A DNA stretch of 64,000 bases. Source: Apteryx mantelli. Lineage: Eukaryota. The stretch covers positions 1 to 64,000 of the forward strand of contig NC_090015.1 in the NCBI RefSeq assembly GCF_036417845.1. Reading direction: 5' to 3'. The notes beneath the pieces are model-generated. The model saw only the letters and a list, made by a program, of their open reading frames with translations. It searched no databases and had not been told where the DNA came from. Shown in pieces: positions 1,132 to 46,900 of the stretch. Made by a program: the position numbers and the translations under genes. How positions within the stretch are numbered: position 1 is the first letter of the stretch; the number at the start of each line of letters is the position of its first letter.

Positions 1132-1133
1132 GT

Positions 1134-2630
1134 ACCTATAGCCCCTCCCTATAGCCCCCCCTATAGCCCCCCCTATAGAGCCCCTATAGAGCCTCTATAG
1201 CGCCCATCCGCCTGCCGCCCCGGGCGCCGGTTCCTATAGTCTCCATAGACTCCGCGTAGTTCCTATAGCTGCCCATCGCCCGCTCTGTTCTTTGTAGAGT
1301 CCCCTATAGCTCCTATAGATTTTATCATCTTTTCCAGCATGTATAGACACCTATGGCCCCCATAAGCTCTCTTGTAGTTCCTTGATCTTCGACGGTTCCT
1401 ATAGGACCTATAGCTTTCGCAGGCTCTCGTCGGGCCCCGCGGTGGCCTATAGTATCCGTCACCGCCGTGGCTCCCTATAGCCGCCCGTGGGCTCCTATAG
1501 CTCTTCCAGGATCCCTTTTCCTCCATAGGCTTTTTGGTTGCCTCGGGGTCTCTTATAGCTTCTATAATCTCCATGGTTTTCCTGTAGCTTTCTATAGTAT
1601 GTGTTGGTTCTTCTATAGGTTCCATAATTCTGATATGGTTTCCTATGTGCTTTATAGTCTTTCTATAGGCTCTAACCCACCCCTGCGTTGCTGCAGGTCC
1701 TATAGGCTCCCTAACACCGCCGTGGTCTCCTATAGCCCTTACGGCTCCTCCGCGGTGTCCTATAGGCTCGGTAACGCCACCGTGGTCTCCTATAGCCCTT
1801 ACGGCTCCTCCGCGGTGTCCTATAGGCTCCGTACCGCCGCCGGGGTCTCCTATAGCCCTTAGGGCTCCTCCACGGTGTCCTATAGGCTCGGTAACGCCAC
1901 CGTGGTCTCCTATAGCCCTTACGGCTCCTCCGCGGTGTCCTATAGGCTCCGTACCGCCGCCGGGGTCTCCTATAGCCCTTAGGGCTCCTCCACGGTGTCC
2001 TATAGGCTCGGTAACGCCACCGTGGTCTCCTATAGCCCTTACGGCTCCTCCGCGGTGTCCTATAGGCTCCGTACCGCTGCCGGGGTCTCCTATAGCCCTT
2101 AGGGCTCCTCCGCGGTGTCCTATAGGCTCCCTGTAGCCCCTCTAGCCACGCGTGGCCTCCTATAGGTTCTCCAGGCCCCATTGCCCCCTCTGGCCCTTCC
2201 GTGGGCTCCTATAGCTCCTATAGGCTCCGTGACACCTTGTGGGCTCCAATAGCTCCTCTAGGCCCCAGGGTCCCCTATAGCCCCTCTAGTTCCCCTCTAA
2301 GGTTTGCTATAGGTCCTATAGGGTTCATGAACCCATATAGGTGCTTTAGCCACCCCATGGGCACCTATAGGTCCTATAGGGTTCATGAACCCATATAGGT
2401 GCTTTAGCCACCCCATGGGCACCTATAGGTCCTATAGGGTTCATGAACCCATATAGGTGCTTTAGCCACCCCATGGGCACCTATAGGTCCTATAGGGTCC
2501 ATAAGTCTCCCATGGTTTCTTGTGGGACCTACAACTTCTTCATGGTCTTCTATAGGCTCCACGATCTTCTTTAGATCTTCTATATGTGTCGGTGGCTCCT
2601 ATAGCTCTTATAGGCTTTGTAAAACCTGCA
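1134..2630. repeat. Mixed CTATAG-containing tandem repeats in MVP intron 1. These comprise an 11-12-bp cctatagcccc run at 1134-1200, a 60-bp unit repeated about 8 times at 1690-2150, and a 60-bp unit repeated 3 times at 2320-2500
   Basis: tcctataggctccgtaacgccaccgtggtctcctatagcccttacggctcctccgcggtg recurs, and gttcatgaacccatataggtgctttagccaccccatgggcacctataggtcctatagg is repeated 3 times. Confidence 0.9.
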
Positions 2631-2639
2631 GGCACCTAT

Positions 2640-5600
2640 AGCCACCCGTGTCCCTGGCGTCCCCCCATGTCCCCAGGGTGTCACCTCGATGTCACCTGCA
2701 TCCCTGGTGTCCCCCCGTGTCCTCAGGGTGTCACCCTGTCACCTGGGTGTCACCTCCATCCCTGGTGTCACCTCCATCCCTGGTGTCCCCCATGTCCCTG
2801 GTGTCCCCCCATCCGTGGTGTCCCCCCATCCGTGGTGTCCCTCCGTCCTTGGTGTCCCTCCATCCCTGGTGTCCCCCATGTCCCTGGTGTCCCTCCATAC
2901 CTGGTGTCACCTCCATCCCTGATGTTCTTCCATCTCTGGTGTCCCTCCATCCCTGGTGTCCCCCATGTCCCTGGTGTTCCTCCACACCTGGTGTCACCTC
3001 CATCCCTGATGTTCTTCCATCTCTGGTGTTCCTCCATCCCTGGTGTCCCCCATGTCCCTGGTGTCCCCCCATCCGTGACGTCCCCTCATGCCCGGTGTCC
3101 CCCCGGCAGGACGTGACGCCGCTGCAGGTGGTGCTGGCCGACACGGCGCTGCGTCCCTGCTCCCCGCGTCCCCCGGGCGTCCCCCCCACGTCCCCCGGGT
3201 GTCCCCTGCTCCATCCGTGGTGTCCCTCCATCCTTAGTGTTCCTCTGTCCTTGGTGTCCCCCCATGTCCCTGGTGTCCCCCATGTCCCTGGTGTCTCTCC
3301 ATCTGTGGTGTCTCTCCATCCATGCTGTCCCCCCATCCGTGGTGTTCCTCCATCCGTGGTGTCCCCCATGTCCCTGGTGTCCCCCATGTCCCTGGTGTCC
3401 CCCCGTCCCTGGTGTCCCCCCGTCCCTGGTGTCCCCCCATCCCTGGTGTCATCTCCATCCCTGGTGTCATCTCCATCCCTGGTGTCCCCCATGTCCCTGG
3501 TGTCCCCCCATCCGTGGTGTCCCTCCGTCCTTGGTGTCCCTCCATCCCTGGTGTCCCCCATGTCCTTGGTGTCCCTCCATCCATGACGTCCCCTCATGCC
3601 CAGTGTCCCCCCGGCAGGACGTGACACCGCTGCAGGTGGTGCTGGCCGACACGGCCCTGCGTCCCTGCTCCCCGCATCCCCCGGGCGTCCCCCTCTCCAT
3701 CCCTGGTGTCCCCCCATCCTTGGTGTCCCCCCATCCTTAGTATCCCTCCATCCGTGGTGTCCCCCATGTCCCTGGTGTTCCCCCATCCCTGGTCTTCCTC
3801 CATCCGTGGTGTCCCCTCATCCGTGGTGTCCCCTCATCCGTGGTGTCCCCCATGTCCCTGGTGTCCCCCCATCCGGGGTGTCCCCCATTTCCCTGATGTT
3901 TCTCCATTCCTGGTGTCCCTCCATCCATGGTGTCCCCCATATCCCTGGTGTCCCACCATCCGTGGCGTCCCCTCATCCCTGGTGTCCCCCGTGTCCCTGG
4001 TGTCCCCCGTGTCCCTGGTGTCCCCCGTGTCCCTGGTTTCCCCCATGTCCCTGGTTTCCACCATGTCCCTGGTGTCCCCCCATCCCTGATGTTCCTCCAT
4101 CCCTGATGTCCCTCCATCCCTGATGTCTCTCCATCCGTGGTGTCCCCCTATCCGTGGTGTCCCCCATGTCCCTGGTGTCCCTCTGTGACGTCCCCTCATC
4201 CCTGGTGTCCCCCCGGCAGGACGTGACGCCGCTGCAGGTGGTGCTGGCCGACACGGCGCTGCGTCCCTGCTCCCTGCGTCCCCCGGGCGTCCCCCCCACG
4301 TCCCCTGGGTGTCCCCTGCTCCATCCGTGGTGTCCCTCCATCCTTAGTGTTCCTCCATCCCTGGTGTCCCCCATCCTTAGTATCCCTCCATCCGTGGTGT
4401 CCCTCCATCCGTGGTGTCCCCCATGTCCCTGGTGTTCCCCCATCCCTGGTCTTCCCCCATCCCTGGTGTCCCTCATCCGTGGTGTCCCCCCATGTCCCTG
4501 GTGTCCCCCCATGTCCCTGGTGTCTCCCATGTCCCTGGTGTCTCCCATGTCCCTGGTGTTCCTCCATCCATGGTGTCTCCCATGTCTCTGGTGTCCCTCC
4601 ATACCTGGTGTCCCCCATGTCCCTGGTGTCTCTCCATCTGTGGTGTCTCTCCATCCATGGTGTCCCCCCATCCGTGGTGTCCCCCATTTCCCTGATGTTC
4701 CTCCATTCCTGGTGTCCCTCCATCCCTGGTGTCCCCCATATCCCTGGTGTCCCTCCATCCGTGGTGTCCCCCATGTCCCTGGTTTCCCTCCATCCGTGGT
4801 GTCCCCCCATCCCTGGAGTTCCTCCATCGCTGGTGTTCCTCCATCCCTGGTGTCCCCCATATCCCTGGTGTCCCTCCATCCGTGGTGTCCCCCATGTCCC
4901 TGGTTTCCCTCCATCTGTGGTGTCCCCCCATCCCTGGAGTTCCTCCATCGCTGGTGTTCCTCCATCCCTGGTGTCCCCCATGTCCCTGGTGTCTCTCCAT
5001 CCCTGGTGTTCCTCCATCCATGGTGTCCCCCATGTCCCTGGTGTCTCTCCATCTGTGGTGTCTTTCCATCCCTGGTTTCCCTCCATCCATGGTGTCCCTC
5101 CATCCGTGGTGTCACCTCCATCCCTGATGTCCCTCTATCCCTGATGTCCCCTCATGCCCGGTGTCCCCCCGGCAGGATGTGACGCCGCTGCAGGTGGTGC
5201 TGGCTGACACGGCGCTGCGTCCCTGCTTTCTGCGTCCCCTGGGTGTCCCCACTCCATCCCTGGTGTCCCTCCATCCTTGGTGTCCCCCCATCCTTAGTGT
5301 TCCTCCATGTCCCTGGTGTTCCTCCATGTCCCTGGTGTTCCTCCATGTCCTTGGTGTTCCTCCATGTCCTTGGTGTCCCCCCATCCCTGGTGTCCCCCCA
5401 TCCCTGGTGTCCCTCCATCCGTGGTGTCCCCCATGTCCCTGGTGTCCCCCCATCCCTGATGTTCCTCCATCCCTGATGTTCCTCCATCCCTGATGTCCCT
5501 CCATCCGTGGTGTCCCCCATGTCCCTGGTGTCCCCCCATCCCTGATGTTCCTCCATCCCTGGTGTTCCTCCATCCGTGGTGTCCCCCATGTCCCTGGTGT

Positions 5601-5650
5601 CACCTCCATCCCTGATGTCTCTCCATCCCTGATGTCCCCTCACGCCCGGT
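2640..5650. repeat. Minisatellite of about 24-27-bp units (ccctggtgtcccccatgtccctggtgtccctccatccgtggtgtcc), organised into 500-960-bp higher-order units that carry the exon-2 junction copies
   Basis: Direct reading. Many reciprocal-strand spurious ORFs (PWCPPCPWC / GHGGHQGWRDTRD). Confidence 0.9.
3080..5260 (+). other. Four truncated copies of the exon-2 junction (acceptor plus the first 50 nt of the exon beginning at 5663), embedded in the intronic repeat; copies begin at 3109, 3618, 4219 and 5176
   Basis: The string ccccggcag|gacgtgacgccgctgcaggtggtgctggccgacacggc(g/c)ctgcgtc recurs nearly identically. After ctgcgtc the copies diverge (ccctgctcc...) where the real exon continues tccgcgccctgctcgac. 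Confidence 0.85.
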
Positions 5651-5662
5651 GTCCCCCGGCAG

Positions 5663-5786
5663 GACGTGACGCCGCTGCAGGTGGTGCTGGCCGACACGGC
5701 GCTGCGTCTCCGCGCCCTGCTCGACTTCGTGGCCCGGGACGGCAGCCGCTTCGTGGCCGGTGATGAGTGGCTCTTCGAAGGTCCCG
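5663..5786 (+). CDS. MVP: MVP coding exon ([42 protein letters not shown]); AG 5661-5662, donor GT 5787-5788; 3' phase 1
   Basis: Near-identical to MVP '[22 protein letters not shown]...[12 protein letters not shown]'. The frame continues from the previous exon. Donor is gtacgc. Confidence 0.9.
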
Positions 5787-5872
5787 GTACGCGGCGGACG
5801 GGGGGGGGGGACGCGCCCCAGGGTGGGGGACACCACCCACCCCGGTGACACCGTGTCCCCGTCCCCGCCAAG

Positions 5873-6004
5873 GCACCTACATCCCCCGCAAGGAGGTGGA
5901 GGTGGCCGAGACGCTGCAGGCCACCGTCATCGGGCCCAACCAGGCCGTGCGGCTGCGGGCGCGCAAGGAGTGCGTCGACCGCGAGGGCGTCCGCCGCGTC
6001 ACAG
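5873..6004 (+). CDS. MVP: MVP coding exon ([45 protein letters not shown]); AG 5871-5872, donor GT 6005-6006; phase 1 at both ends
   Basis: Matches MVP '[44 protein letters not shown]'. A split Gly codon joins it to the previous exon across a short 86-bp intron. Confidence 0.9.
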
Positions 6005-19303: not shown

Positions 19304-19569
19304 GTGCGGGCGGTGGTGGGCCAGACCTACATGCTGACGGCGACGGAGGAGCTGTGGGAGAAGGAGCTGGCGCCCGGCGTGGAGGCGCTGCTGGCGGCCG
19401 CCCGCGACCCCCGGGGCCAGCGCGGGGCCACCGCCGGGGACATCGGGGACGTCGGGGACGACGCCGGGGACACGGCGGGGCGGCGGCGCGACCGCACGCG
19501 GGCCGTCACCTTCCGCGTGCCCCACAACGCCGCCATGCAGCTCTACGACTACCGGGAGCGGCGGGCGCG
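19304..19569 (+). CDS. MVP: MVP coding exon ([88 protein letters not shown]+cg); AG 19302-19303, donor GT 19570-19571 (gtgagc); 3' phase 2
   Basis: Matches MVP '[30 protein letters not shown]...[25 protein letters not shown]'. It contains an in-frame GGGGAC(A/G)TC repeat (GDIGDVGDD) related to the downstream intronic satellite. Confidence 0.85.
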
Positions 19570-20949
19570 GTGAGCGGGGACGTTGGGGACATCGGGGACA
19601 TCGGGGAGGTTGGGGGCATCAGGGACATCTGGGACGTGGAGGACATCAGAGATGTTGGGGGTGTCAGGGATGTCGGGGACATTGGGGACATCAGGGATGT
19701 TGGGGACATCTGGGACATGGAGGACATCAGAGACGTTGGGGATGTTGGGGACGTCGGGGACATCGGGGGTGTTGGGGACGTCGGGGAGGTTGGGGGCGTC
19801 AGGGACATCTGGGACCTGGAGGACATCAGAGACGTTGGGAATATTGGGGATGTTGGGGACATCTGGGACGTGGAGGACATCAGGGACGTTGGGGATGTTG
19901 GGGACGTTGGGATGTCGGGGACATTGGGGACATCTGGGACGTGGAGGACATCAGGGACGGGGACGTTGGGGACCTCAGGGACATCTGGGACCTGGAGGAC
20001 ATCAGAGACGTTGGGGATGTTGGGGATGTTGGGGGCGTTGGGGACATCTGGGACATAGAGGACATCAGAGACGTTGGGGATGTTGGGGACATTGGGGACA
20101 TGGAGGACATCAGAGATGGGGATGTTGGGGACATTGGGGACATCTGGGACATGGAGGACATCAGGGACATTGGGGATGTTGGGGGCTTTGGGGATATGGA
20201 GGACATCAGAGACGTTGGGGATGTTGGGGATGTGGGGGACATCTGGGACCTGGAGGACATCAGAGACGTTGGGGATGTTGGGAGCATTGGGGACATGGAG
20301 GACATCAGAGATGGGGATGTTGGGGACATTGGGGACATCTGGGACATGGAGGACATCAGGGACATTGGGGATGTTGGGGACATTAAGGGGCATCAGGGAC
20401 ATCAGGGACTTGGAGGACATCAGAGACGTTGGGGACGTTGGGGGCGTCAGGGACGTCGGGGACATGGAGGACATCAGGGACTTTGGGGTTGTTGGGGACA
20501 TCAGGGACGTTGGGGACATCTGGGACACGGAGGACATCAGAGATGGGGACATTGGGGATGTCAGGGACATTGGGGACATCTGGGACACAGAGGACATCAG
20601 GGACGTTGGGGGACGTTGGGGGCGTCAGGGACATCTGGGACATGGAGGACATCAGAGACGGGGATGGTGGGGACGTTGGGGATGTTGGAGACATCTGGGA
20701 CATGGATGGCATCAGAGACAGGGACATTGGGGACATCTGGGACATGGAGGACATCTGAGACGTTGGGGATGTTGGGGACATCAGGGACATTGGGGATGTT
20801 GGGGACGTTGAGGACATCGGGGACATCAGGGACATCTGGGACATGGAGGACATCAGGGACATTGGGGCTGTCGGGGATGTTGGGGACGTTGGGGGTGTTG
20901 GGGACATGTGGGACATGGAGGACATCAGAGATGGGGATGGCGGGGACGT

Positions 20950-21080
20950 TGGGGACGCCGTTGGGGACACGGGGGACGCGGCGGGGCGGCGGCGCGACCG
21001 CACGCGGGCCGTCACCTTCCGCGTGCCCCACAACGCCGCCATGCAGCTCTACGACTACCGGGAGCGGCGGGCGCGGTGAG
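20950..21080 (+). other. Copy of the exon-8 3' end plus donor (…[35 protein letters not shown]|gtgagcgggg), inside the intron-8 satellite
   Basis: About 125 nt identical to 19445-19575, including the gtgagc donor, but lacking the 5' two-thirds of the exon. Confidence 0.85.
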
Positions 21081-23444
21081 CGGGGACGTTGGGGACATCG
21101 GGGACATCGGGGAGGTTGGGGGCATCAGGGACATCTGGGACGTGGAGGACATCAGAGATGTTGGGGGTGTCAGGGATGTCGGGGACATTGGGGACATCAG
21201 GGATGTTGGAGACATCTGGGACATGGAGGACATCAGAGACGTTGGGGATGTTGGGGACGTCGGGGACATCGGGGGTGTTGGGGACGTCGGGGAGGTTGGG
21301 GGCGTCAGGGACATCTGGGACCTGGAGGACATCAGAGACGTTGGGAATATTGGGGATGTTGGGGACATCTGGGACGTGGAGAACATCAGAGACATTGGGG
21401 ATGTTGGGGACATGGGGGACATTGGGGACATCAGGGACATGGAGGACATCAGGGACATTGGGGATGTTGGGGATGTTGGGGACATCTGGGACATGGAGGA
21501 CATCAGGGACGTTGGGGATGGTGGGGACGTTGGGGACATCTGGGACATGGAGGACATCAGGGATGCTGGGGACATTGGGGAGGTTGGGGATGTTGGGGAC
21601 ATCTGGGACATGGAGGACATCAGGGACATTGGGGCTGTCGGGGATGTCAGGGATGTTGGGGACGTTGGGGGCGTTGGGGACATGTGGGACATGGAGGACA
21701 GCAGAGACGTTGGGGATGTTGGGGACGTTAAGGGGCATCAGGGACATCAGGGACATGGAGGACATCAGAGACGGGGATGTTGGGGACATTGGAGGTGTCG
21801 GGGACATCTGGGACATGGAGGACATCAGAGATGTTGGGGACATTGGGGAGGTTGGGGATGTTGGGAACGTTGGGGACATCAGGGACATTGGGGACATCTG
21901 GGACCTGGAGAACATCAGAGACGTTGGGAATATTGGGGACGTCGGGGACATCTGGGATCTGGAGGACATCAGAGACGTTGGAGATGTTGGGGGCGTTGGG
22001 GACATTGGAGACATGGAGGACATCAGGGACGTTGGGGACATTGGGGATGTTGGGAACATGGAGGACATCAGGGACATTGGGGCTGTTGGGGACGTTGGGG
22101 ATGTCAGGGACGTTGGGGACATCTGGGACCTGGAGGACATCAGAGACGTTGGGGATGTTGGGGACATTGGGGACATGGAGGACATCAGAGATGGGGATGT
22201 TGGGGACATTGGGGACATCTGGGACATGGAGGACATCAGAGACGTTGGGGATGTTGGGAGCATTGGGGACATGGAGGACATCAGGGACATTGGGGATGTT
22301 GGGGACATTAAGGGGCATCAGGGACATCAGGGACTTGGAGGACATCAGAGACGTTGGGGACGTTGGGGGCGTCAGGGACGTCGGGGACATGGAGGACATC
22401 AGGGACGTTGGGGATGTTGGGGACATCAGGGACGTTGGGGACATCTGGGACACGGAGGACATCAGAGACGGGGACATTGGGGATGTCAGGGACATTGGGG
22501 ACATCTGGGACACAGAGGACATCAGGGACGTTGGGGACATCGGGGTCGTTGGGGACATCTGGGACGTGGAGGACATCAGGGACGTTGGGGATGTTGGGAG
22601 CATTGGGGACATGGAGGACATCAGGGACATTGGGCCTGTTGGGGACGTTGGGGACGTTGGGGACATCTGGGACATGGAGGACATCAGGGACGTTGGGGAT
22701 GTTGGGGACATTGGAGGTGTTGGGGACATCTGGGACATGGAGGACATCAGAGACGGGGACATTGGGGATGTTGGGGACGTTGGGGACATCAGGGACATGG
22801 AGGACATCAGGGACGTTGGGATGTTGGGGGCATTGGGGACATCGGGGACATGGAGAACATCAGAGACGTTGGGGACATTGGGGACGTTGGGGACATCGGG
22901 GACACAGAGGACATCAGGGACGTTGGGGATGTTGGGGACGTTGGGGACATCTGGGACGTGGAGGACATCAGGGACGTTGGGGATGTTGGGGACATCAGGG
23001 ACGTTGGGGACATCTGGGACACGGAGGACATCAGAGATGGGGACATTGGGGATGTCAGGGACATTGGGGACATCTGGGACACAGAGGACATCAGGGACGT
23101 TGGGGACGTCGGGGGCGTCAGGGACATCTGGGACATGGAGGACATCAGAGACGGGGATGGTGGGGACGTTGGGGATGTTGGAGACATCTGGGACATGGAT
23201 GGCATCAGAGACAGGGACATTGGGGACATCTGGGACATGGAGGACATCTGAGACGTTGGGGATGTTGGGGACATCAGGGACATTGGGGATGTTGGGGACG
23301 TTGAGGACATCGGGGACATCAGGGACATCTGGGACATGGAGGACATCAGGGACATTGGGGCTGTCGGGGATGTTGGGGACGTTGGGGGTGTTGGGGACAT
23401 GTGGGACATGGAGGACATCAGAGATGGGGATGGCGGGGACGTTG

Positions 23445-23575
23445 GGGACGCCGTTGGGGACACGGGGGACGCGGCGGGGCGGCGGCGCAACCGCACGCGG
23501 GCCGTCACCTTCCGCGTGCCCCACAACGCCGCCATGCAGCTCTACGACTACCGGGAGCGGCAGGCGCGGTGAGCG
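23445..23575 (+). other. Second copy of the exon-8 3' end plus donor, carrying two substitutions (D>N and R>Q)
   Basis: Same 125-nt block with cgcaaccgc and cggcaggcgcgg variants. The donor gtgagc lies at 23569. Confidence 0.85.
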
Positions 23576-24399: not shown

Positions 24400-27300
24400 G
24401 CTGGTGCCACCGGGGGGGGGGGCACGTGTGTGGGTGCGTGTGACCTGCGTGTGGGTGCGTGTGGGGGCACGTGACACCCACGTGACACCCGTGTGGGTGC
24501 GTGTGACACACATGTAGGTGCGTGTGACCTGCGTGTGGGTGCGTGTGACACCCGTGTTGGTGCGCGTGACGTGTGTGGGTGCCTATAACACACGTGTGGG
24601 TGCGTGACATTGCGTGTGGGTGCGTGTGACGTGTGTGGGTGCGTGTGACCCACGTGTGGGTGCATGTGGGTGCGTGTGGGGGGGCGTGACACCTGTGTGA
24701 CACCCGTGTGGGCGCGTGTGACCCGTGTGTGGGTCTGTGTGGGTGCGTGTGACACCCGTGTGGGTGCGTGTGGGTGTGTGTGACCCACATGTGGGTGTGT
24801 GCGACCTGTGTGTGGGTGCGTGTGGCCCGCGTGTGGGCCCGTGTGACACCCGTGGGTGCGTGTGACACGCATGTGGATGCGTGTAGGTGCGTGTGACCCA
24901 CGTGTGGGGGCATGTGGGGGTGCGTGACACCTGTGTGACACCCGTGTGGGTGCGTGTGACACACGTGTGGGTGCGTGTGACACATGTGGGTGCGTGTGAC
25001 CCATGTGTGTGTGCGTGTGACACACGTGGGTGCGTGTGAAATGCATGTGGCTGCGTGTGACCCACGTGTGGGTGTGTGTGACACACGTGTGGGTGCGTGT
25101 GGGTGCGTGTGACACCCATGTGGGTGCGTGTGACCTGCGTGTGGGTGCATGTGACCCACGTGTGGGTGCGTGTGACACGTGTGGGTGCGTGTGGGTGCAT
25201 GTGACACCCATGTGGGTGCGTGTGACCCGTGTGTGGGCCTGTGTGACCACTGTGGGTGCGTGTGACACACGTGTGGGTGCGTGTGACGTGGGAGTGGGTG
25301 CGTGTGACCTGCGTGTGGGTGCGTGTGACCCACGTGTGGGTGTGTGTGACCCACATGTGGCTGCATGTGACACCCGTGTGGGTGTGTGTGACCCACGTGT
25401 GGGGGCATGTGACCCACGTGTGGGGGCGTGTGGGGGCGCATGACACCTGTGTGACACCCGTGTGGGTGTGTGTGACCTGTGTGTGGGTGCGTGTGGGTGC
25501 GTGTGACACGTGTGGGTGTGTGTGACACCCGTGTGGGTGCGTGTGACCTGCGTGTGGGTGGGTGGGACACACGTGCGGGTGCGTGTAAAATGCGTGTGGG
25601 TGCGTGTGACACACATGTGGGGGTGTGTGACACGTGTGTGGGTGCGTGTGGGTGCGTGTGACACCTATGTGGGTGCATGTGACCTGCGTGTGGGTGCGTG
25701 TGACACGTGTGTGGGTGTGTGTGGGTGCGTGGGACCCGCATGTGGGTGCGTGTGACCTGCGTGTGGGCCTGTGTGACCCCCGTGGGCGCGTGTAACACGC
25801 GTGTGGGTGCGTGTAACACGTGTGTGGGTGCGTGTGACCTGCGTGTGGGCCCATGTGACCCCTGTGGACGCGTGTAACACACGTGTGGGTGCGTGTGGGT
25901 GTGTGTGACCCACGTGTGGGTGCGTGTGACCTGCGTGTGGGCCTGTGTGACCCCCGTGGGTGTGTGCAACATGCGTGTGGGGGCGTGTGACCCACGTGTG
26001 GGGGCGTGTGGGGGCGCATGACACCTGTGTGACACCCGTGTGGGTGCGTGTGACCTGTGTGTGGGTGCGTGTGGGTGTGTGTGACACGTGTGGGTGTGCG
26101 TGACCCACGTGTGGGTGTGTGTGACCTGCGTGTGGGTGGGTGGGACACACGTGGGTGCGTGTAAAATGCGTGTGGGTGCGTGTGACCCGCGTGTGGGTGT
26201 GTGACACGTGTGTGGGTGCGTGTGGGTGCGTGTGACACCCATGTGGGTGCGTGTGACCTGCGTGTGGGTGCATGTGACCCGCGTGTGGGTGCGTGTGACC
26301 TGCGTGTGGGCCCGTGTGACCCCCGTGGGTGCGTGTAACACGCGTGTGGGTGCGTGTGGGTGCGGGTGACCCACGTGTGGGTGCGTGTGACCTGCGTGTG
26401 GGCCTGTGTGACCCCCGTGGGTGGGTGCAACACGCGTGTGGGTGCGTGTGATGCGCGTGTGGCTGCGTGTGACCCCTGTGTGGCTGCGTGTGGGGACGCG
26501 TGACACCCGTGGGACCCCCGTGGGGTGACCCCCGTGTCCCCCGTGTCCCCACGCAGGGTGGTGCTGGGCCCCGAGCTGGCGCTGCTGGCGCCCGGCGAGC
26601 AGCCCACGGCGCCGTCCCTCTCCGGGGGGGGACACGTGTGACCCCCGCGTGGGTGCGTGTGACACCTGTGGGGTGACACGTCACGCGTGTGGGTGCGTGT
26701 GACATGTGTATGGGTGCGTGGGAGACGTGTGGGTGCGTGTGACCCGTATGTGGGTGTGGGTGACCTGCGTGTGGGTCCATGTGACACACACGTGGGTGCG
26801 TGTGACATGCGTGTGGGTGCGTGTGACGTGGGAGTGGGTGCGTGTGACCTGCGTGTGGGTGCGTGTGACCCACGTGTGGGGGTGTGTGGGGGCGCATGAC
26901 ACCTGTGTGACACCCGTGTGGGTGCGTGTGACCTGCGTGTGGGTGCGTGTGGGTGTGTGTGACACGTGTGGGTGTGCGTGACCCACGTGTGGGTGTGTGT
27001 GACCTGCGTGTGGGTGGGTGGGACACACGTGCGGGTGCGTGTGAAATGCGTGTGGGTGCGTGTGACCCACATGTGGGGGTGTGTGACGCGTGTGTGGGTG
27101 CGTGTGGGTGCGTGTGACACCTATGTGGGTGCATGTGACCTGCGTGTGGGGGCGTGTGACCCGCGTGTGGGTGCGTGACATGTGTGTGGGTGTGTGTGGG
27201 TGCGTGGGACCCGCGTGTGGGTGCGTGTGACCTGCGTGTGGGCCTGTGTGACCCCCGTGGGTGCGTGTAACACGCGTGTGGGTGCGTGTAACACGTGTGT

Positions 27301-28160
27301 GGGTGCGTGTGACCTGCGTGTGGGCCCGTGTGACCCCCGTGGGCGCGTGTAACACACGTGTGGGTGCGTGTGGGTGCGTGTGACCCATGTGTGGGTGCGT
27401 GTGACCGGCGCGTGGGTGCGTGTGGGTGCGTGTGACGTGGGTGTGGGTGCGTGTGGGTGCATGTGACATGCATGTGGGTGCGCGTGACCCCCGTGGGGTG
27501 ACCCCCGTGTCCCCCCCACCCACGCAAGGTGGTGCTGGGCCCCGAGCTGGCGCTGCTGGCGCCCGGCGAGCAGCCCACGGCGCCGTCCCTCTCCGGGGTG
27601 GGACGCGTGTGACCCCCGTGGGGACCCGCGTGGGTGCGTGTGACCCCCGTGGGGTGACCCCCGTGTCCCCCCCACCCACGCAGGGTGGTGCTGGGCCCCG
27701 AGCTGGCGCTGCTGGCGCCCGGCGAGCAGCCCACGGTGCTGTCCCTCTCCGGGGGGGGACGCGTGTGACCCCCGCGTGGGTGCGTGTGGGTGCGTGTGAC
27801 CCCCGTGGGGATGCGTGTGACCCCCGTGGGGTGACCCCCGTGTCCCCCGTGTCCCCACGCAGGGTGGTGCTGGGCCCCGAGCTGGCGCTGCTGGCGCCCG
27901 GCGAGCAGCCCACGGCGCCGTCCCTCTCCGGGGTGGGACACGTGTGACCCCCGTGGGGACCCGCGTGGGTGCGTGTGACCCCCGTGGGGTGACCCCCGTG
28001 TCCCCCGTGTCCCCACGCAGGGTGGTGCTGGGCCCCGAGCTGGCGCTGCTGGCGCCCGGCGAGCAGCCCACGGCGCCGTCCCTCTCCGGGGGGGGACGCG
28101 TGTGACCCCCGCGTGGGTGCGTGTGACCCCCGTGGGGTGACCCCCGTGTCCCCCGTGTCC
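24400..28160. repeat. GT-rich repeat of 9-30-bp units (gtgtgggtgcgtgtgacccacgtgtgggtgcgtgtgac), carrying the exon-9 junction copies near its 3' end
   Basis: Direct reading. The alternating purine-pyrimidine GT/GC character is evident. Confidence 0.9.
26530..28100 (+). other. Five truncated copies of the exon-9 acceptor plus its 5' 80 nt, starting at 26556, 27529, 27684, 27863 and 28021; they lie upstream of the real exon at 28169
   Basis: The string ccccacgcag|ggtggtgctgggccccgagctggcgctgctggcgcccggcgagcagcccacgg(c/t)gc(c/t)gtccctctccgggg recurs, with each copy diverging after ctctccgggg. The second copy has caag in place of cag. Confidence 0.85.
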
Positions 28161-28168
28161 CCACGCAG

Positions 28169-28366
28169 GGTGGTGCTGGGCCCCGAGCTGGCGCTGCTGG
28201 CGCCCGGCGAGCAGCCCACGGTGCTGTCCCTCTCCGGGGGACGCCCCAAGCGTCCCCACGCCCGCCGCGCCCTCTGCCTGCTGCTGGGCCCCGACTTCTG
28301 CGCCGACCTCGTGGCCATCGAGACCGCCGACCACGCCCGCCTCCAGCTCCAGCTCGCCTACAACTG
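28169..28366 (+). CDS. MVP: MVP coding exon ([68 protein letters not shown]); AG 28167-28168, donor GT 28367-28368; phase 2 at both ends
   Basis: Almost identical to MVP '[66 protein letters not shown]'. It is the last and only complete copy in a series of five upstream truncated copies. Confidence 0.88.
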
Positions 28367-28369
28367 GTG

Positions 28370-29700: not shown

Positions 29701-29839
29701 GCACTTCGAGGTGCCGGAGGCGCCGGAGGAGCTGGGCCGCCTCTTCAGCGTCCCCGACTTCGTGGGTGACGCCTGCAAGGCCCTGGCGTCCCGCGTGCGC
29801 GGCGCCGTCGCCGCCGTCTCCTTCGACGACTTCCACAAG
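29701..29839 (+). CDS. MVP: MVP coding exon ([47 protein letters not shown]); AG 29699-29700, donor GT 29840-29841
   Basis: Matches MVP '[48 protein letters not shown]'. The Trp codon is split with the previous exon. Confidence 0.88.
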
Positions 29840-31640: not shown

Positions 31641-33150
31641 AATGTCCCCAGAGCTCGAACCCCGTGATCTGCCCGGCCCTGTTCAGCTTCAGCGAGGCCC
31701 CATGTCCCCAATGTCCCCAATGTCCCCGACGTCCCCAATGTCCCTGATGTCCCCAATGCCCCCAATATCTCCAATGTCCCCGATGTCCCCAATGTCCCTG
31801 ATGTCCCTGATGTCCCCAATGTCCCCGACGTCCCCATCGTCCCTGATGTCCCCAATGCCCCCAATATCTCCAATGTCCCCGATGTCCCCAATGTCCCTGA
31901 TGTCCCTGATGTCCCCAACGTCCCTGATGTCCCCAATGCCCCCAATATCTCCAATGTCCCCGATGTCCCCAATGTCCCTGATGTCCCCGATGTCCCCAGA
32001 ACTCCAACCGGGTGATCTGCTCGGCCGTGTTCGGCTTCAACGAGGCCCCATGTCCCTAATGTCCCGTAATGTCCCCAATGCCCCGTAATGTCCCCGATGT
32101 CCCCAACATCCTCAATGTCCCCAATGTCCCCAACGTCCCCGATGTCCCCGACGTCCCCGCCGTCCCCAGAACTCCAACCGGGTGATCTGCTCGGCCGTGT
32201 TCGGCTTCGATGAGGCCCCGTGTCCATAATGTCCCGTAATGTCCCCAATGTCCCCAACATCCTCAATGTCCCCAATGTCCCCGATGTCCCTGATGTCCCT
32301 GACGTCCCCGCCGTCCCCAGAACTCCAACCGGGTGATCTGCTCGGCCACGTTCGGCTTCGACGAGGCCCCGTGTCCATAATGTCCCGTAATGTCCCCAAT
32401 GTCCCCAAGGTCCCCGACATCCCCAATGTCCCCGATGTCCTGACATCCCCGATGTCCCCAATGTCCCCGATGTCCCCAGAACTCCAACTGGGTGATCTGC
32501 TCGGCTGTGTTCGGCTTCGATGAGGCCCCGTGTCCCTAATGTCCTGTAATGTCCCCGATGTCCCAACGTCCCCAACGTCCCCAATGTCCTCAATGTCCCC
32601 AACATCCCTGATGTCCCCAACGTCCCTGATGTCCCCAGAACTCCAACCGGGTGATCTGCTCAGCCGTGTTCGGCTTCGACGAGGCCCCGTGTCCATAATG
32701 TCCCATGATGTCCCCAACATCCCTGATGGCCCTGATGTCCCCGACGTCCCTGATGTCCCCGATGTCCCTGATGTCCCCAACGTCCCTGCTGTCCCCAGAA
32801 CTCCAACCGGGTGATCTGCTCGGCCGTGTTCGGCTTCAACGAGGCCCCGTGTCCCTAATGTCCCATGATGTCCCCGATGTCCCCAACGTCCCTGATGTCC
32901 CCGATGTCCCCGACGTCCCCAACGTCCCCAGAACTCCAACCGGGTGATCTGCTCGGCCGTGTTCGGCTTCGACAAGACCCTATGTCCCTAATGTCCCGTA
33001 ATGTCCCCGATGTCCCGTAATGTCCCTGCTGTCCCCAACATCCTCAATGTCCCCAACGTCTCCGATGTCCCCGACATCCCTGATGTCCCCGATGTCCCCA
33101 GAACTCCAACCGGGTGATCTGCTCGGCCGTGTTCGGCTTCGACGAGGCCC
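31640..33150 (+). other. Nine copies of the exon-11 acceptor plus its 5' 50 nt (ccccag|aactccaaccgggtgatctgctcggccgtgttcggcttcgacgag), starting at 31652 (degenerate), 32000, 32170, 32321, 32480, 32639, 32799, 32932 and 33102
   Basis: Near-identical strings recur every 133-170 bp inside a higher-order repeat of 15-21-bp 'gatgtcccc' units. The copies continue gccccgtgtcc, whereas the real exon at 33253 continues ggcggccgcctgcgc. Confidence 0.85.
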
Positions 33151-33252
33151 CGTGTCCCTAATGTCCCGTAATGTCCCCAATGTCCCCAACGTCCCCGATG
33201 TCCCCGATGTCCCTGACGTCCCCGATGTCCCCAATGTCCCCGATGTCCCCAG

Positions 33253-33465
33253 AACTCCCAACCGGGTGATCTGCTCGGCCGTGTTCGGCTTCGACGAGGG
33301 CGGCCGCCTGCGCGAGCGCCTCCGCTTCGCCCCCAACGGCCTGGTGGTCACCAGCGTGGACATCCAGAGCGTGGAGCCCGTGGACCAGCGGACGCGCGAC
33401 GCCCTGCAGCGCAGCGTCCAGCTCGCCATCGAGATCGCCACCAACTCCCAGGAGGCCACCGCCAG
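33253..33465 (+). CDS. MVP: MVP coding exon ([70 protein letters not shown]-ag); AG 33251-33252, donor GT 33466-33467. Apparent +1 frameshift in a C-run near 33257-33259
   Basis: Matches MVP 'NSARIIRMAVFGFE...[47 protein letters not shown]'. The nine upstream truncated copies read aactccaaccgg in frame, whereas this copy reads aactcccaaccgg. Confidence 0.7.
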
Positions 33466-33469
33466 GTCC

Positions 33470-42032: not shown

Positions 42033-42293
42033 TCAGGGAGGCGCCGGTGGGCGGAAGAGGCGCCAGGCGCCGCGGCAGATGAGGCCGAACCAGTAGAGCT
42101 GGGGGGCGAGGAGGGCGGCGGCGGCAGCGTTGTAGGCAGCAGGCAGCGCCGCCGGCACCCGCAGCAGCGGCAGCCCCGCGTGGCGCCCGTAGGCCCAGTA
42201 CAGGTAAGGGAAGAGCAGCACCCGGCACCCGAAGAAGGTCACCAGCATGGCCAAGCCGTTGAGCTTGTGCAGCGCCGTGTGTTGCCGCTTGTA
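42033..42293 (-). CDS. TLCD3B: TLCD3B (FAM57B) terminal coding exon ([86 protein letters not shown])
   Basis: Minus-strand translation aligns to the TLC-domain protein FAM57B/TLCD3B C-terminus '...[48 protein letters not shown]...[21 protein letters not shown]'. The minus-strand acceptor cag lies at plus 42294-42296. The frame matches ORF 42033..42317(-). Confidence 0.85.
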   Translation of the reverse strand, partial: [86 protein letters not shown]

Positions 42294-42339
42294 CTGCCGG
42301 GTGAAGAGGGGGGACAACGGGGGACGCGGTCAGCGCGTA

Positions 42340-42900
42340 GGGGGTGGCCGGGGTCACCTCTATGGTCTCCCGAGGGATCCTGGTGGCCGGGGACCCTGGT
42401 TCACCCCTATGTTCTCCTGAGGGACCCGGGTGTCTGGTGGCCCCGATCCATCCCTACGTCCTCCTGAGGGACCCAGGTGTCCGGGGATCCTGGTGTCTGG
42501 TGGCCCCGATCCATCCCTACGTCCTCCCGAGGGACCCAGGTGTCCGGGGACCCTGGTTCACCCCTATGTTCTCCTGAGGAACCCGGGTGTCTGGTGGCCC
42601 CGATCCATCCCTACGTCCTCCCGAGGGACCCAGGTGGCCGGGGATCCTGGTTCACCCCTATGTTCTCCTGAGGAACCCGGGTGTCTGGTGGCCCCGATCC
42701 ATCCCTACGTCCTCCTGAGGGACCCAGGTGGCCAGGGACCCTGGTTCACCCCTATGTTCTCCTGAGGGACCCGGGTGTCTGGTGGCCCCGATCCATCCCT
42801 ACGTCCTCCCGAGGGACCCAGGTGGCCGGAGACCCAAGTGACCAGTGGCCCCGATCCACCCCACGTCTTCCCAAGGGACCCAGGCGTCCGGGCCCCACCC
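42340..42900. repeat. Tandem repeat of about 46/92-bp units (ctggtggccccgatccatccctacgtcctcctgagggacccaggtgtccgg…ggttcacccctatgttctcctgag), in the last TLCD3B intron
   Basis: ORFs 42344.., 42430.. and 42477.. share peptides. Confidence 0.85.
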
Positions 42901-42936
42901 CGCCCTCCCCCCGAGGGGCCCAGGCGTCCGGCTCAC

Positions 42937-43032
42937 CAGGATGAGCACCTTGCCGAGGCAGACGAAGGGGGTGCTCAGCTCCGCCATGAGGAGGCAGCCC
43001 AAGAAGAAGTCGCCCTTGCCCTGGCGCCACAG
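42937..43032 (-). CDS. TLCD3B: TLCD3B coding exon ([32 protein letters not shown]); 96 bp, phase 0 at both ends; minus-strand donor gtgagc
   Basis: Aligns to FAM57B '[32 protein letters not shown]'. It is flanked by cag|ctg on the acceptor side and ctg|gtgagc on the donor side on the minus strand. Confidence 0.8.
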
Positions 43033-43039
43033 CTGGGGA

Positions 43040-43760
43040 CACGAGGGGGGACACGGGGGGACACGGGGGGGGACACGGGTCACACGGGGGGGGGACACGG
43101 ACACAGGTCACAAGGGGGAACAGGAGGACATGGGTCACATGACGTGGAGGACACCACCAGGACGTGGGGTGGCCTACCCGGGTTGCCCCCATCCCCACGG
43201 TGTCCCCAAGGTGTCCCCAACCCCCTCCCAACTCACGGAGGCCACAGGGAAGCAGAGCAGCACCGTGGTGGCCACCTCCTTGCCATGGTGGTGGCCTCCC
43301 ATCCCGTGTTCCCCAAGAGGTTCCTCCATCCCCGAGCCATCTCTGTCCCCATGGTGTCCCCAGCTGCTGTCCCCACTCGATGGGGAAGCAGACGAGGACC
43401 ATGGTGGCCACCACGAGCCCATCCTCGCCGACGTGGTGGCCACCCATCCCGTGTCTCCAAGAGGTTCCTCCGTCTCCAAGCCATGCTGGTGCCCCCAGGG
43501 TGTCCCCAACCCCCGTCCCCACTCATGGTGACCACGAGGACGCAGACGAGCACCACGGTGGCCACCACGAGAACGTCCCCGCCGAGGTGGTGGCCCCCCA
43601 ACGCCACGTCCCCAAGAAGGTTCCTCCGCCCCCCCCAAGCCCCGTCCCCACGGGGAAGCAGACGAGCACCACGGCGGCCACCACGAGACCATCCCCGCCA
43701 CGGTGGTGGCCCTCCATGCCACGTCCCCAAGAAGGTTCCTCCATCCCCGTCCCCTACTCA
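43040..43760. repeat. Tandem repeat of about 130-150-bp units derived from the TLCD3B exon end and donor
   Basis: See the TLCD3B copy feature above. Recurrent strings are gaagcagacgagcaccacgg(c/t)ggccaccacgag. Confidence 0.75.
43225..43700 (-). other. Four degenerate copies of the TLCD3B exon 3' end plus donor (…LVCFPVAA|gtgagt), in the adjacent intron at plus 43225-43290, 43355-43420, 43510-43580 and 43625-43700
   Basis: Minus-strand strings such as ctgctctgcttccctgtggcctccgtgagttgg, ctgcgtcctcgtggtcaccatgagtgggg and ctcgtctgcttccccgtggggacgg recur at a period of about 130-150 bp. Confidence 0.7.
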
Positions 43761-43761
43761 C

Positions 43762-43981
43762 GGCGGCCACGGGGAAGCAGACGAGCACCATGGCGGCGTG
43801 GTGGAGCACCATGAGCAGGTCCTTGCGGAGGTAGGCGGCGGCGGCGGCCCGCAGCGACGGCGGTGGCCCGGCCTCGTGGCCCTTGACGCGTCCCCGGTGC
43901 CAGTGGCAGAGGAACATGGCGTAGACGTCGTAGACGAAGTAGGGCACCGCGAACTCCGGGTAGGCGCCCGCCAGCCAGTGC
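43762..43981 (-). CDS. TLCD3B: TLCD3B coding exon (g-HWLAGAYPEFAVPYFVYDVYAMFLCHWHRGRVKGHEAGPPPSLRAAAAAYLRKDLLMVLHHAAMVLVCFPVAA); minus-strand donor gtgagt. The 5' (acceptor) boundary is uncertain
   Basis: Aligns to FAM57B 'QHWLSSAYTQFAVPYFIYDIYAMFLCHWH...YLHKEFLMVLHHAAMVLVCFP'. The conserved HH motif of the TLC domain is present. The open frame continues upstream into the 58-bp satellite, so I inferred the acceptor at 'acag|g' (plus 43981-43983). Confidence 0.65.
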
Positions 43982-43989
43982 CTGTCCCC

Positions 43990-46900
43990 AAAAATGACGT
44001 CAGGGGACCCAGGCGTCCGGGAGGGACCCAGGCGTCCGGGCAGGGACCCGGGTGTCCAGGGGACCCGGGTGTTTGGTGGCCTCGTGGCCACCATCTCCCC
44101 TGGTTTCACTCTACATCTGGGTCATCTTCAAGGGACCCAGGCGTCCGGGGAGACTCGTGTCACCTCTAGAGGGACCAGGCGTCCGGGAGGGGCCCAGGCG
44201 TCCGGGGAGTCTCGCGTCACCTCTAGGGGGACCCGGGCGTCCGGGAGGGGCCCAGGCGTCCGGGGAGTCTCGCGTCACCTCTAGGGGGACCCGGGCGTCC
44301 GGGAGGGGCCCAGGCGTCCGGGGAGCCTCGCGTCACCTCTAGGGGACCCGGGCGTCCGGGAGGGGCCCAGGCGTCCGGGGAGTCTCGCGTCACCTCTAGG
44401 GGGACCCGGGCGTCCGGGAGGGGCCCAGGCGTCCGGGGAGTCTCGCGTCACCTCCAGGGGGACCCGGGCGTCCGGGAGGGGCCCAGGCGTCCGGGGAGCC
44501 TCGCATCACCTCTAGGGGGACCCGGGCGTCCGGGAGGGGCCCAGGCGTCCGGGGAGTCTCGCGTCACCTCTAGAGGGACCCGGGCGTCCGGGAGGGGCCC
44601 AGGCGTCCGGGGAGTCTCGCGTCACCTCTAGAGGGACCCGGGCGTCCGGGAGGGGCCCAGGCGTCCGGGGAGTCTCGCGTCACCTCTAGGGGCACCCGGG
44701 CGTCCGGGAGGGGCCCAGGCGTCCGGGGAGTCTCGCGTCACCTCTAGGGGGACCCGGGCGTCCGGGAGGGGCCCAGGCGTCCGGGGAGTCTCGCGTCGCC
44801 TCTAGGGGGACCCGGGCGTCCGGGAGGGGCCCAGGCGTCCGGGGAGTCTCGCGTCACCTCTAGGGGGACCCGGGCGTCCGGGAGGGGCCCAGGCGTCCGG
44901 GGAGTCTCGCGTCACCTCTAGGGGGACCCGGGCGTCCGGGAGGGGCCCAGGCGTCCGGGGAGTCTCGCGTCACCTCTAGGGGGACCCGGGCGTGCTGGAG
45001 GGGCCCAGGCGTCCGGGGAGTCTCGCGTCGCCTCTAGGGGGACCCGGGCGTCCGGGAGGGGCCCAGGCGTCCGGGGAGTCTCGCGTCGCCTCTAGGGGGA
45101 CCCGGGCGTCCGGGAGGGGCCCAGGCGTCCGGGGAGCCTCGCGTCACCTCTAGGGGGACCCGGGCGTCCGGGAGGGGCCCAGGCGTCCGGGGAGCCTCGT
45201 GTCACCTCTAGGGGGGCCCGGGCGTCCGGGAGGGGCCCAGGCGTCCGGGGAGTCTCGCGTCACCTCTAGGGGGACCCGGGCGTCCGGGAGGGGCCCAGGC
45301 GTCCGGGGAGTCTCCTGTCACCTCTAGGGGCACCCGGGCGTCCGGGAGGGGCCCAGGCGTCCGGGGAGTCTCGCGTCACCTCTAGGGGACCCGGGCGTGC
45401 GGGAGGGGCCCAGGCGTCCGGGGAGTCTCGCGTCACCTCTAGGGGGACCCGGGCGTCCGGGAGGGGCCCAGGCGTCCGGGGAGCCTCGCGTCACCTCTAG
45501 GGGGACCCGGGCGTCCGGGAGGGGCCCAGGCGTCCGGGGAGTCTCGCGTCACCTCTAGAGGGACCCGGGCGTCCGGGAGGGGCCCAGGCGTCCGGGGAGC
45601 CTCGCGTCACCTCTAGAGGGACCCGGGCGTCCGGGAGGGGCCCAGGCGTCCGGGGAGTCTCGCGTCACCTCTAGGGGGACCCGGGCGTCCGGGAGGGGCC
45701 CAGGCGTCCGGGGAGTCTCGCGTCACCTCTAGGGGGACCCGGGCGTCCGGGAGGGGCCCAGGCGTCCGGGGAGTCTCGCGTCGCCTCTAGGGGGACCCGG
45801 GCGTCCGGGAGGGGCCCAGGCGTCCGGGGAGTCTCGCGTCACCTCTAGGGGGACCCGGGCGTCCGGGAGGGGCCCAGGCGTCCGGGGAGTCTCGCGTCAC
45901 CTCTAGGAGACCCGGGCGTCCGGGAGGGGCCCAGGCGTCCGGGGAGTCTCGCGTCACCTCTAGGGGGACCCGGGCGTCCGGGAGGGGCCCAGGCGTCCGA
46001 GGAGTCTGGCGTCACCTCTAGGGGGACCCGGGCGTCCGGGAGGGGCCCAGGCGTCCGGGGAGTCTCGCGTCACCTCTAGGGGGACCCGGGCGTCCGGGAG
46101 GGGCCCAGGCGTCCGGGGAGTCTCGCGTCACCTCTAGGGGGACCCGGGCGTCCGGGAGGGGCCCAGGCGTCCGGGGAGTCTCGCGTCACCTCTAGGGGGA
46201 CCCGGGCGTCCGGGAGGGGCCCAGGCGTCCGGGGAGTCTCGCGTCACCTCTAGAGGGACCCAGGTGTCCGGGAGGGGCCCAGGCGTCCGGGGAGTCTCGC
46301 GTCGCCTCTAGGGGGACCCGGGCGTCCGGGAGGGGCCCAGGCGTCCGGGGAGTCTCGCGTCACCTCTAGGGGGACCCGGGCGTCCGGGAGGGGCCCAGGC
46401 GTCCGAGGAGTCTGGCGTCACCTCTAGGGGGACCCGGGCGTCCGGGAGGGGCCCAGGCGTCCGGGGAGTCTCGCGTCACCTCTAGGGGGACCCGGGCGTC
46501 CGGGAGGGGCCCAGGCGTCCGGGGAGTCTCGCGTCACCTCTAGGAGACCCGGGCGTCCGGGAGGGGCCCAGGCGTCCGGGGAGTCTCGCGTCACCTCTAG
46601 AGGGACCCAGGCGTGCGGGAGGGGCCCAGGCGTCCGGGGAGTCTCGCGTCACCTCTAGAGGGACCCAGGCGTGCGGGAGGGGCCCAGGCGTCCGGGGAGT
46701 CTCGCGTCACCTCTAGGGGGACCCGGGCGTCCGGGAGGGGCCCAGGCGTCCGGGGAGTCTCGCGTCACCTCTAGGGGGACCCAGGTGTCCGAGAGGGGCC
46801 CAGGCGTCCGGGGAGTCTCGCGTCACCTTTACGGGGACCCAGGAGTCCGGGAGGGGCCCAGGCGTCCGGGGAGTCTCGCGTCGCCTCTAGGGGGACCCGG

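Follow-up and report, generated by a model that had tools for sequence, protein, structure and literature searches.

Partial copies of an exon start and its acceptor in a satellite-filled MVP intron of Apteryx mantelli: a probable case of exon stuttering

The DNA analyzed here, 64,000 nucleotides (nt) of Apteryx mantelli (contig NC_090015.1 of assembly GCF_036417845.1, positions 1 to 64,000 of the forward strand; hereafter, the window), contains a plus-strand MVP gene, one intron of which holds four partial copies of the start of its downstream exon, each joined to a copy of the 3′ splice site. The gene assignment derives from concatenated exon translations, which match the Pfam domains Vault (7e-57) and MVP_shoulder (5e-47), as well as Vault_2, Vault_3, and Vault_4, and from plus-strand tblastn matches that span ~910 to 39,540 (a human MVP sequence was the query and served as a probe only). 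The top database matches of the window protein are the MVPs of emu (84%), ostrich (84%), and Rhea pennata (86%), with neognath birds at ~77%. Ratite MVP proteins are 91 to 93% identical among themselves, and the window protein is 84 to 86% identical to them; by these comparisons, the window MVP appears to lie closest to the palaeognaths, on a long branch. We compared it with the MVP loci of emu (L001), ostrich (L002), rhea (L003), Lagopus (L004), and a terrapin (L005). The gene spans at least 38.6 kb in the window, 29 to 32 kb in the ratites, ~10 kb in Lagopus, and ~9 kb in the terrapin, and the excess over the latter two is almost wholly intronic tandem repeat. Coverage by Tandem Repeats Finder (TRF) in the window MVP amounts to 93% for introns and 7% for exons, and the GC content of the window is 69.5%. 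A search of the whole window at Rfam gathering thresholds found no RNA family.

The intron that carries the copies (1132–5662; 4,531 nt; 81% tandem repeat by TRF) follows an exon at 910–1131, which was located by tblastn, ends in PGERLQQ, and has its donor, CAG/GTACCT, at 1132; a blastn screen detected no additional copies of this upstream exon within the window. Repeats of a CCTATAG type occupy the 5′ part of the intron and a 17-nt satellite its 3′ part, which leads into the real acceptor region (5629–5662) and the complete exon 5663–5786. This exon starts in phase 0, has an open frame, encodes a Vault-repeat segment of MVP, and ends at the donor CCG/GTACGC (GT at 5787); its frame and donor are confirmed by the presence of the next MVP exon (5873–6004, from tblastn and translation), which ends in RRVTG. 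Its first 44 nt, together with the preceding 10 nt of the acceptor region, form a 54-nt blastn match to rhea at 100% identity.

The first 46 nt of this exon, GACGTGACGCCGCTGCAGGTGGTGCTGGCCGACACGGCGCTGCGTC (source, 5663–5708), recur at 3110–3155 (no mismatches), 3618–3663 (two mismatches), 4220–4265 (none), and 5176–5221 (two), and these four copies plus the real exon are the only sites on either strand of the window; none of 100 dinucleotide-preserving shuffles produced a chance match. The ~35 nt on the 5′ side of each copy, including the acceptor ...CCCCCGGCAG, are common to all and differ from the real site by one to five substitutions; the copies with their acceptor regions occupy 3075–3155 (copy 1), 3583–3663 (copy 2), 4185–4277 (copy 3), and 5141–5221 (copy 4), all on the plus strand. 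The C-run before GGCAG, in CCCCC(C)GGCAG, differs by a single base, with six C's in the copies and five at the real site. A sequence-only reading of the window had placed the four copies correctly to within 1 nt and had recognized that only the last site precedes the rest of the exon and a real donor. Its estimate that about 55 nt of exon had been copied is slightly generous: clear exon homology ends at nt 46 and may reach nt 53 to 58 (copy 3 aligns up to exon nt 58 at 94.8% in blastn, and a CCTGCTC motif lies downstream of the homology, after a possible 7-nt deletion).

Successive copies, the real exon included, are spaced 508, 602, 956, and 487 bp apart. All four read CTCAT where the real acceptor region reads CTCAC, all four contain a window-specific CTGCGT variant (ratites read CTGCGC), and all four pass, at one exon breakpoint, into a nonexonic tail that starts alike, CCTGCTCC..GCGTCCCC. 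The tails are of two types, with type A (...CCCCCACGTCCCCYGGGTGTCCCCTGCTCCATCCGTGG...) in copies 1 and 3, where it extends in copy 1 to ~3260, and type B in copies 2 and 4. Upstream flanks are grouped differently, into GTGACG in copies 1 to 3 and CTGATG in copy 4 and the real exon, and it is copy 4 whose upstream flank is most similar to that of the real exon. Aligned with the rest of the exon, the tails score 12 to 19, against a background maximum of 12, a weak signal above that of the satellite and an ambiguous one because CCTGCTCC is also a satellite variant.

The satellite itself (2640–5657, plus strand; ~168 units at 73% matches in TRF) is C-rich, with consensus CATCCCTGGTGTCCCCC, and is broken four times by a nonsatellite block, these blocks being the copies. 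Its 3 kb have a GC content of 64% and hold 20 AG dinucleotides, 7 of which lie within the copies; positions 2640 to 5662 are 43% C and 7.5% A and contain 25 canonical G-quadruplex (G4) motifs on the minus strand, which is the template for MVP, versus none on the plus strand. Across the array, TRF reports periods of 17, 52, and 69 only. Self-blastn of the array returns no long near-identical blocks, and its high-scoring segment pairs (HSPs) of ≥120 bp are 80 to 92% identical in many registers, which corresponds to satellite background; in alignments anchored on the copies, raised identity is limited to about −80 to +150 around each. A regular higher-order repeat was considered and rejected, since neither self-blastn nor the anchored alignments show one outside the ~200-bp cores and since the period is not constant. 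To call the array a higher-order repeat, as had been done from sequence, is thus only loosely true, given its irregular spacing, mosaic flanks, and lack of a constant multimonomer period.

In emu, ostrich, and rhea, too, a CCATCCCTGGTGTCCCC-type satellite (of the CATCCCTGGTGTCCCCC type) directly precedes the orthologous exon, but the core of exon 5663 occurs a single time in each of the emu, ostrich, rhea, Lagopus, and terrapin loci, and comparison of the orthologous introns, as proposed with the sequence-only reading, finds the four copies in none of these five. Because the satellite is shared with ratites that lack the copies, it is the older of the two, and the lineage of the window is where the copies originated. 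This runs counter to the suggestion that the satellite grew by repeated duplication of a segment spanning the intron-exon junction; for the copies, as distinct from the satellite in which they sit, a duplication across that junction is the simplest origin. No comparable arrays occur in the Lagopus and terrapin MVP loci, although absence from Lagopus is weak evidence because its assembly may have collapsed repeats.

At the 5′ end of the intron, which begins with GTACCTATAGCCCC repeats in all four birds (window, emu, ostrich, and rhea), the three ratites have copies of their own. These are donor-side copies, numbering 16 in emu (L001 5046–7617), 25 in ostrich (L002 7205–11255), and 20 in rhea (L003 2097–5149), in units of 151 to 155 bp that include the final ~78 nt of the upstream exon and the GT donor that follows. 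In all three species, the exon sequence in the unit begins at the same point, CGGCTGCG. The units differ among species in their intronic part and in some exon variants, the latter matching the exon of the same species, a pattern suggestive of a single old event with concerted evolution thereafter; the apparent age of this array is tens of millions of years. The occurrence of donor-side copies in the same intron indicates that both of its borders are prone to the process.

Arrays of this kind have been described in chicken, where “sequence stuttering” in dot-chromosome genes includes a subtype, “exon stuttering,” in which copies of a lateral exon segment run through the intron along with the donor or acceptor next to it (Hron et al. 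2026, Genome Biol Evol 18:evag038; PMC12954441). According to that study, 236 introns in 115 chicken genes stutter (190 on dot chromosomes), >90% of stutter sources lie no more than 1 base away from the border of the exon, the exon part ranges from 20 to 187 nt (median, 36), the number of copies from 1 to 44 (median, 4), and the stutter span from 112 to 23,555 bp (median, 1,751). Source exons are intact, intron length and copy number vary among individual chickens, and the arrays were verified by raw nanopore reads; the copies are held to “create potential alternatively spliced transcripts,” with no RNA data given and a speculative mechanism (PMC12954441). The systematic screen covered chicken only, and MVP is not named in the text of that paper or in the supplements searched. 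For zebra finch, dot-chromosome introns are reported to consist of >70% tandem repeats (preprint 10.1101/2025.10.17.683159).

The window intron has every sequence-testable attribute of exon stuttering. Partial copies of the lateral part of a coding exon, along with its splice site, lie in the proximal intron; the source is within 1 base of the exon border (the blastn matches of exon 5663 all start at query position 1), and homology runs ~35 nt into the intron. The matches score 75.0 to 91.6 bits in a screen of each exon against the window by blastn, for which we adopted the published threshold of 42.1 bits, the maximum of the shuffled controls in chicken (PMC12954441), with settings that may differ from those published. 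The sizes also agree, with an exon part of 46 to 58 nt, four copies, and a span of 2.6 kb (3110–5708), and imperfect tandem repeats fill this intron (81%) and the MVP introns as a whole (93%). Source exon 5663–5786 and the coding sequence are intact. The density of G4 motifs on the minus strand fits the published idea of replication stress at G4-rich DNA as a driver.

The window resembles chicken PHF8 intron 18 in that an exon edge and its splice site recur in imperfect tandem within a simple-repeat intron while the exon is intact, but its copies lie 0.5 to 1 kb apart in an older 17-nt satellite, whereas those of PHF8 form a compact unit of ~150 bp. As in chicken stuttering at large, the window MVP is very GC-rich, with G4 motifs, and sizes are near the published medians; the gene is another one (MVP), as is the bird, whose nearest relatives are palaeognaths. 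With the donor-side arrays of ratites, the window copies share the gene, the intron, the tandem exon edge with its splice site, and the intactness of the real exon, although the ratite arrays lie at the opposite end of the intron, on the donor side, and have regular units and a common breakpoint.

We consider it probable, with good confidence, that the four copies are a product of exon stuttering, in which local tandem-repeat instability in a very GC-rich avian gene placed copies of an exon border, and of the splice site there, in the adjacent intron. On this account, the old C-rich 17-nt satellite would already have been present at the 3′ end of the intron, as its sharing with emu, ostrich, and rhea shows. 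A tandem duplication with breakpoints ~46 to 58 nt into the exon and in the satellite, specific to the window lineage according to the comparison of loci, would then have set an acceptor and exon-start fragment upstream of the intact exon. Two or more further unequal exchanges between copies could have produced the four copies with their A-B-A-B tails; together with the differently grouped upstream flanks, this alternation of tails implies at least three events. Slippage of the 17-mer, through expansion and contraction, would have altered the spacing. The copies are most likely passengers, that is, passive by-products of repeat instability and not a device.

An alternative that we regard as unlikely is that exon-edge arrays, including that of the window, are long-lived and might affect splicing kinetics or serve as conversion partners of the exon. 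The common start nucleotide of the ratite donor-side copies and their possession of each species' own exon variants suggest an array that was present in the palaeognath ancestor and has been kept in step with the real exon by gene conversion. The fourth array of the window MVP (described below), with eight in-frame copies versus an extra C in the full-length exon, hints at a case of conversion partners.

What the copies might do to splicing depends first on their signals. All five 3′ splice sites have a candidate branch point, CUCAU or CUCAC, at about −22 and are 68 to 73% pyrimidine from −40 to −4, and the proposal that the spliceosome faces five equivalent sites is accurate insofar as these local 3′ signals are near-identical; it overlooks the exon context, where the real donor scores best. 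By a rough 5′ splice-site position-weight matrix, used for ranking only, the best GT from the first copy to the end of the exon is the real donor at 5787. The CTG/GTGTCT sites of the satellite fall at least 2.6 bits below it, and a CAG/GTGGTG that all copies and the real exon contain 18 nt from their start (3128, 3636, 4238, 5194, and 5681) falls ~1 bit below it. Under the exon-definition model, the site that leads into a complete exon with its donor should prevail, and exon definition should here favor 5663 because no copy precedes a donor as good as the real one. Annotated emu and ostrich MVP proteins, which are gene models, hold each stuttered segment once, which is consistent with the full-exon copy winning. 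When its acceptor is joined to the upstream exon and read to 5786, each copy meets an in-frame stop (copy 1 after 158 codons, copy 2 after 40, copy 3 after 320, and copy 4 after 105), such that any use of a copy would introduce a stop codon and its product would probably be removed by nonsense-mediated decay (NMD). We also considered and rejected a recursive splice site: all five sites read CAG/GACGTG, i.e., AG/GA and not AG/GT.

Decoy exons, or exons subject to regulated unproductive splicing, have both splice sites and are conserved in the cases described. The window copies are like them in being intronic, splice-site-bearing fragments that could engage the spliceosome without productive splicing and unlike them in being lineage specific and without a good donor. 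Decoy or poison exons proper were rejected as a class for the copies, which have no comparable donor save the site 18 nt in and are absent from the five sauropsid loci. That the copies are nevertheless functional, engaging U2AF/U2 with CAG/GTGGTG or weak satellite GTs as donors, delaying or diverting the splicing of this intron, and thereby tuning MVP via intron retention or NMD, seems to us quite improbable. This would accord with five near-identical 3′ splice sites that have plausible branch points and long AG-poor, pyrimidine-rich runs upstream, with their transcription ahead of the real site and the CAG/GTGGTG 18 nt downstream of each, with the better preservation of the exon-derived than of the intronic part, and with the persistence of donor-side arrays that have the same breakpoint in ostrich, emu, and rhea. 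However, the copies are missing from the orthologous intron in emu, ostrich, rhea, Lagopus, and terrapin, and copy numbers, sides, and breakpoints differ by lineage, as neutral turnover predicts. Moreover, the pattern recurs at many exons, as well as in 115 chicken genes with copy-number polymorphism (PMC12954441), which speaks for a process of mutation and against regulation particular to this gene.

We likewise give little credence to a different origin of the copies, in which ectopic gene conversion or template switching, and not serial tandem duplication, seeded the exon fragment at several places in the satellite. Such seeding would account for the 96 to 100% identity of the exon part to the real exon within a satellite that is ~80 to 88% identical at any register, as well as for the irregular spacing, and the fact that the copies of each ratite share the variants of its own exon points to ongoing conversion between exon and copies. 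It does not explain why all four copies share CTCAT and a run of six C's, unlike the CTCAC and five C's of the real site, or why they leave the exon at the same breakpoint for the same tail start, as independent tracts would not stop alike four times; these shared states and breakpoint fit one founding junction with subsequent amplification. Least probable of all is an assembly artifact in which the tandem region was expanded, collapsed, or misjoined and the four copies are unreal, because, although a 3-kb low-complexity satellite with 64% GC and G4 motifs is hard to sequence and a suspicious extra C occurs in a C-run of a full-length exon elsewhere in MVP, the copies are told apart by private substitutions and by their flanks, identity over ≥120 bp never rises above ~92% (unlike in false duplications), analogous arrays exist in three independent assemblies of other species, and those of chicken were confirmed by raw nanopore reads (PMC12954441), even if the copy number could still be wrong.

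Several observations weigh against exon stuttering with inert copies as we have set it out. The CAG/GTGGTG sites would, in principle, permit in-frame micro-exons of 18 nt (DVTPLQ), and the predicted nonuse of the copies rests on a rough donor matrix and a general exon-definition model. The exon part of the copies has diverged less from its real counterpart than has the intronic part, which could hint at gene conversion or constraint: the two parts differ from the real site at 4/184 and 13/136 positions, respectively (nominal Fisher P = 0.005), a comparison that is not robust because shared changes are counted repeatedly and that, by event count, is not convincing. Copy number and exact spacing could be misassembled. 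Furthermore, the location of this MVP on a dot chromosome is supported only indirectly: the GC content of the window is high (69.5%), orthologues lie on records of 3.3 Mb in emu and 4.8 Mb in ostrich, and the genes next to MVP (kinesin in ostrich, TLC-domain in the window) presumably fit the synteny of human 16p11.2. ALDOA, which comes from the 16p11.2 region, is on chicken chromosome 38 (PMC12954441).

Nor can the harmlessness of the copies be assumed, considering that a junction duplication in another gene wrecked splicing. The human FGG exon 8-intron 8 tandem duplication (403 bp) is pathogenic and, by minigene, leads mostly to intron retention and frameshifts, creating a null allele (PMC9052919). 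It parallels the window in being a tandem duplication across an exon border, with a full exon plus a partial copy and a doubled splice site; it differs in being a single, recent event in a repeat-poor intron, whereas many copies persist in an apparently intact and conserved MVP.

Border-anchored copies are present at 4 of the ~15 MVP exons in the window, and the three arrays other than that of exon 5663 score 66 to 196 bits. The second array (19304–23569, plus strand; blastn) consists of exon 19304–19569 and two donor-side copies of its last 136 nt plus the GTGAGC donor, at 20941–21076 and 23434–23569 (91 to 93% identity). In the third (26556–28367, plus strand), the first 73 nt of exon 28168–28367 recur five times on the acceptor side, starting at 26556, 27528, 27683, 27862, and 28020 (97 to 100% identity), and in the fourth (31999–33466, plus strand), the first 48 nt of the exon from ~33253 recur eight times on the acceptor side, starting at 31999, 32169, 32320, 32479, 32638, 32798, 32931, and 33101 (92 to 98% identity). 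The edge copies of exon 5663 are, in this respect, neither singular nor new.

Counterparts of the latter two arrays exist in other birds. Rhea has 11 acceptor-side copies (L003 18446–20119) of the homologue of exon 28168, with a breakpoint at nt ~57, versus nt ~73 to 82 in the window copies (26556–28092), and this difference in breakpoints indicates that the border of exon 28168 was struck independently in the two lineages. For the fourth array, several diverged partial copies of the exon start occur in emu (L001 27510–28014) as a counterpart of the window array at 31999–33147, and both their breakpoint and the sequence after the junction, CC(C)NGTGTCC, resemble those of the eight window copies. 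There are no partial copies of this exon start in the ostrich or rhea loci; the array may be common to emu and the window by descent. At 33250–33265, the sole full-length copy of this exon reads CAG/AACTCCCAACCGG, whereas the sequence is AACTCCAACCGG in all eight partial copies and AACTCGAACCGG in emu, ostrich, and rhea. The extra C puts the exon out of frame with the phase-0 donor at 29839/29840; it reflects either a homopolymer error of the assembly or a true frameshift of the full-length exon, with the partial copies retaining the intact sequence.

Two further observations concern the comparison loci. The annotated ostrich MVP begins with 54 residues (MMSSSAP...) for which up to five tandem matches lie at L002 1190–2165, and this N-terminal extension, which is absent from the other species, may be a gene-model artifact inside a repeat. 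In the terrapin, a second tblastn match to the end of one MVP exon (L005 7871–8487) may represent a single exon-edge copy outside birds or just overlapping HSPs.

The window provides a clean instance of exon stuttering, with multiple arrays, in a well-known gene outside chicken. Beyond the chicken description, it reveals an intronic satellite that is older than the exon copies, one intron struck at opposite ends in different lineages, one exon border struck independently in rhea and the window, and one array that is apparently ancient; these comparative points are modest additions and no new category. They also pose a puzzle for splicing, in that 4 to 25 duplicated splice sites per intron exist beside a conserved MVP, whereas one FGG duplication abolishes expression, and MVP would offer a convenient minigene model for the tolerance of duplicated splice sites. 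For annotation, such arrays invite miscalled exons and frameshifts.

Directly downstream of MVP, two minus-strand open reading frame fragments (42036–44121) match the Pfam TLC domain PF03798 (9.6e-11 and 4.5e-06), which indicates a putative convergent TLC-domain gene; from the synteny of human 16p11.2, we assume that this may be TLCD3B/FAM57B. The rest of the window, from 44131 to its end at 64000, is taken up by at least 19.9 kb of a GC-rich 58-bp satellite (unit, GGGGCCCAGGCGTCCGGGGAGTCTCGCGTCACCTCTAGGGGGACCCGGGCGTCCGGGA), which also shows higher periods of 116 and 174 bp.

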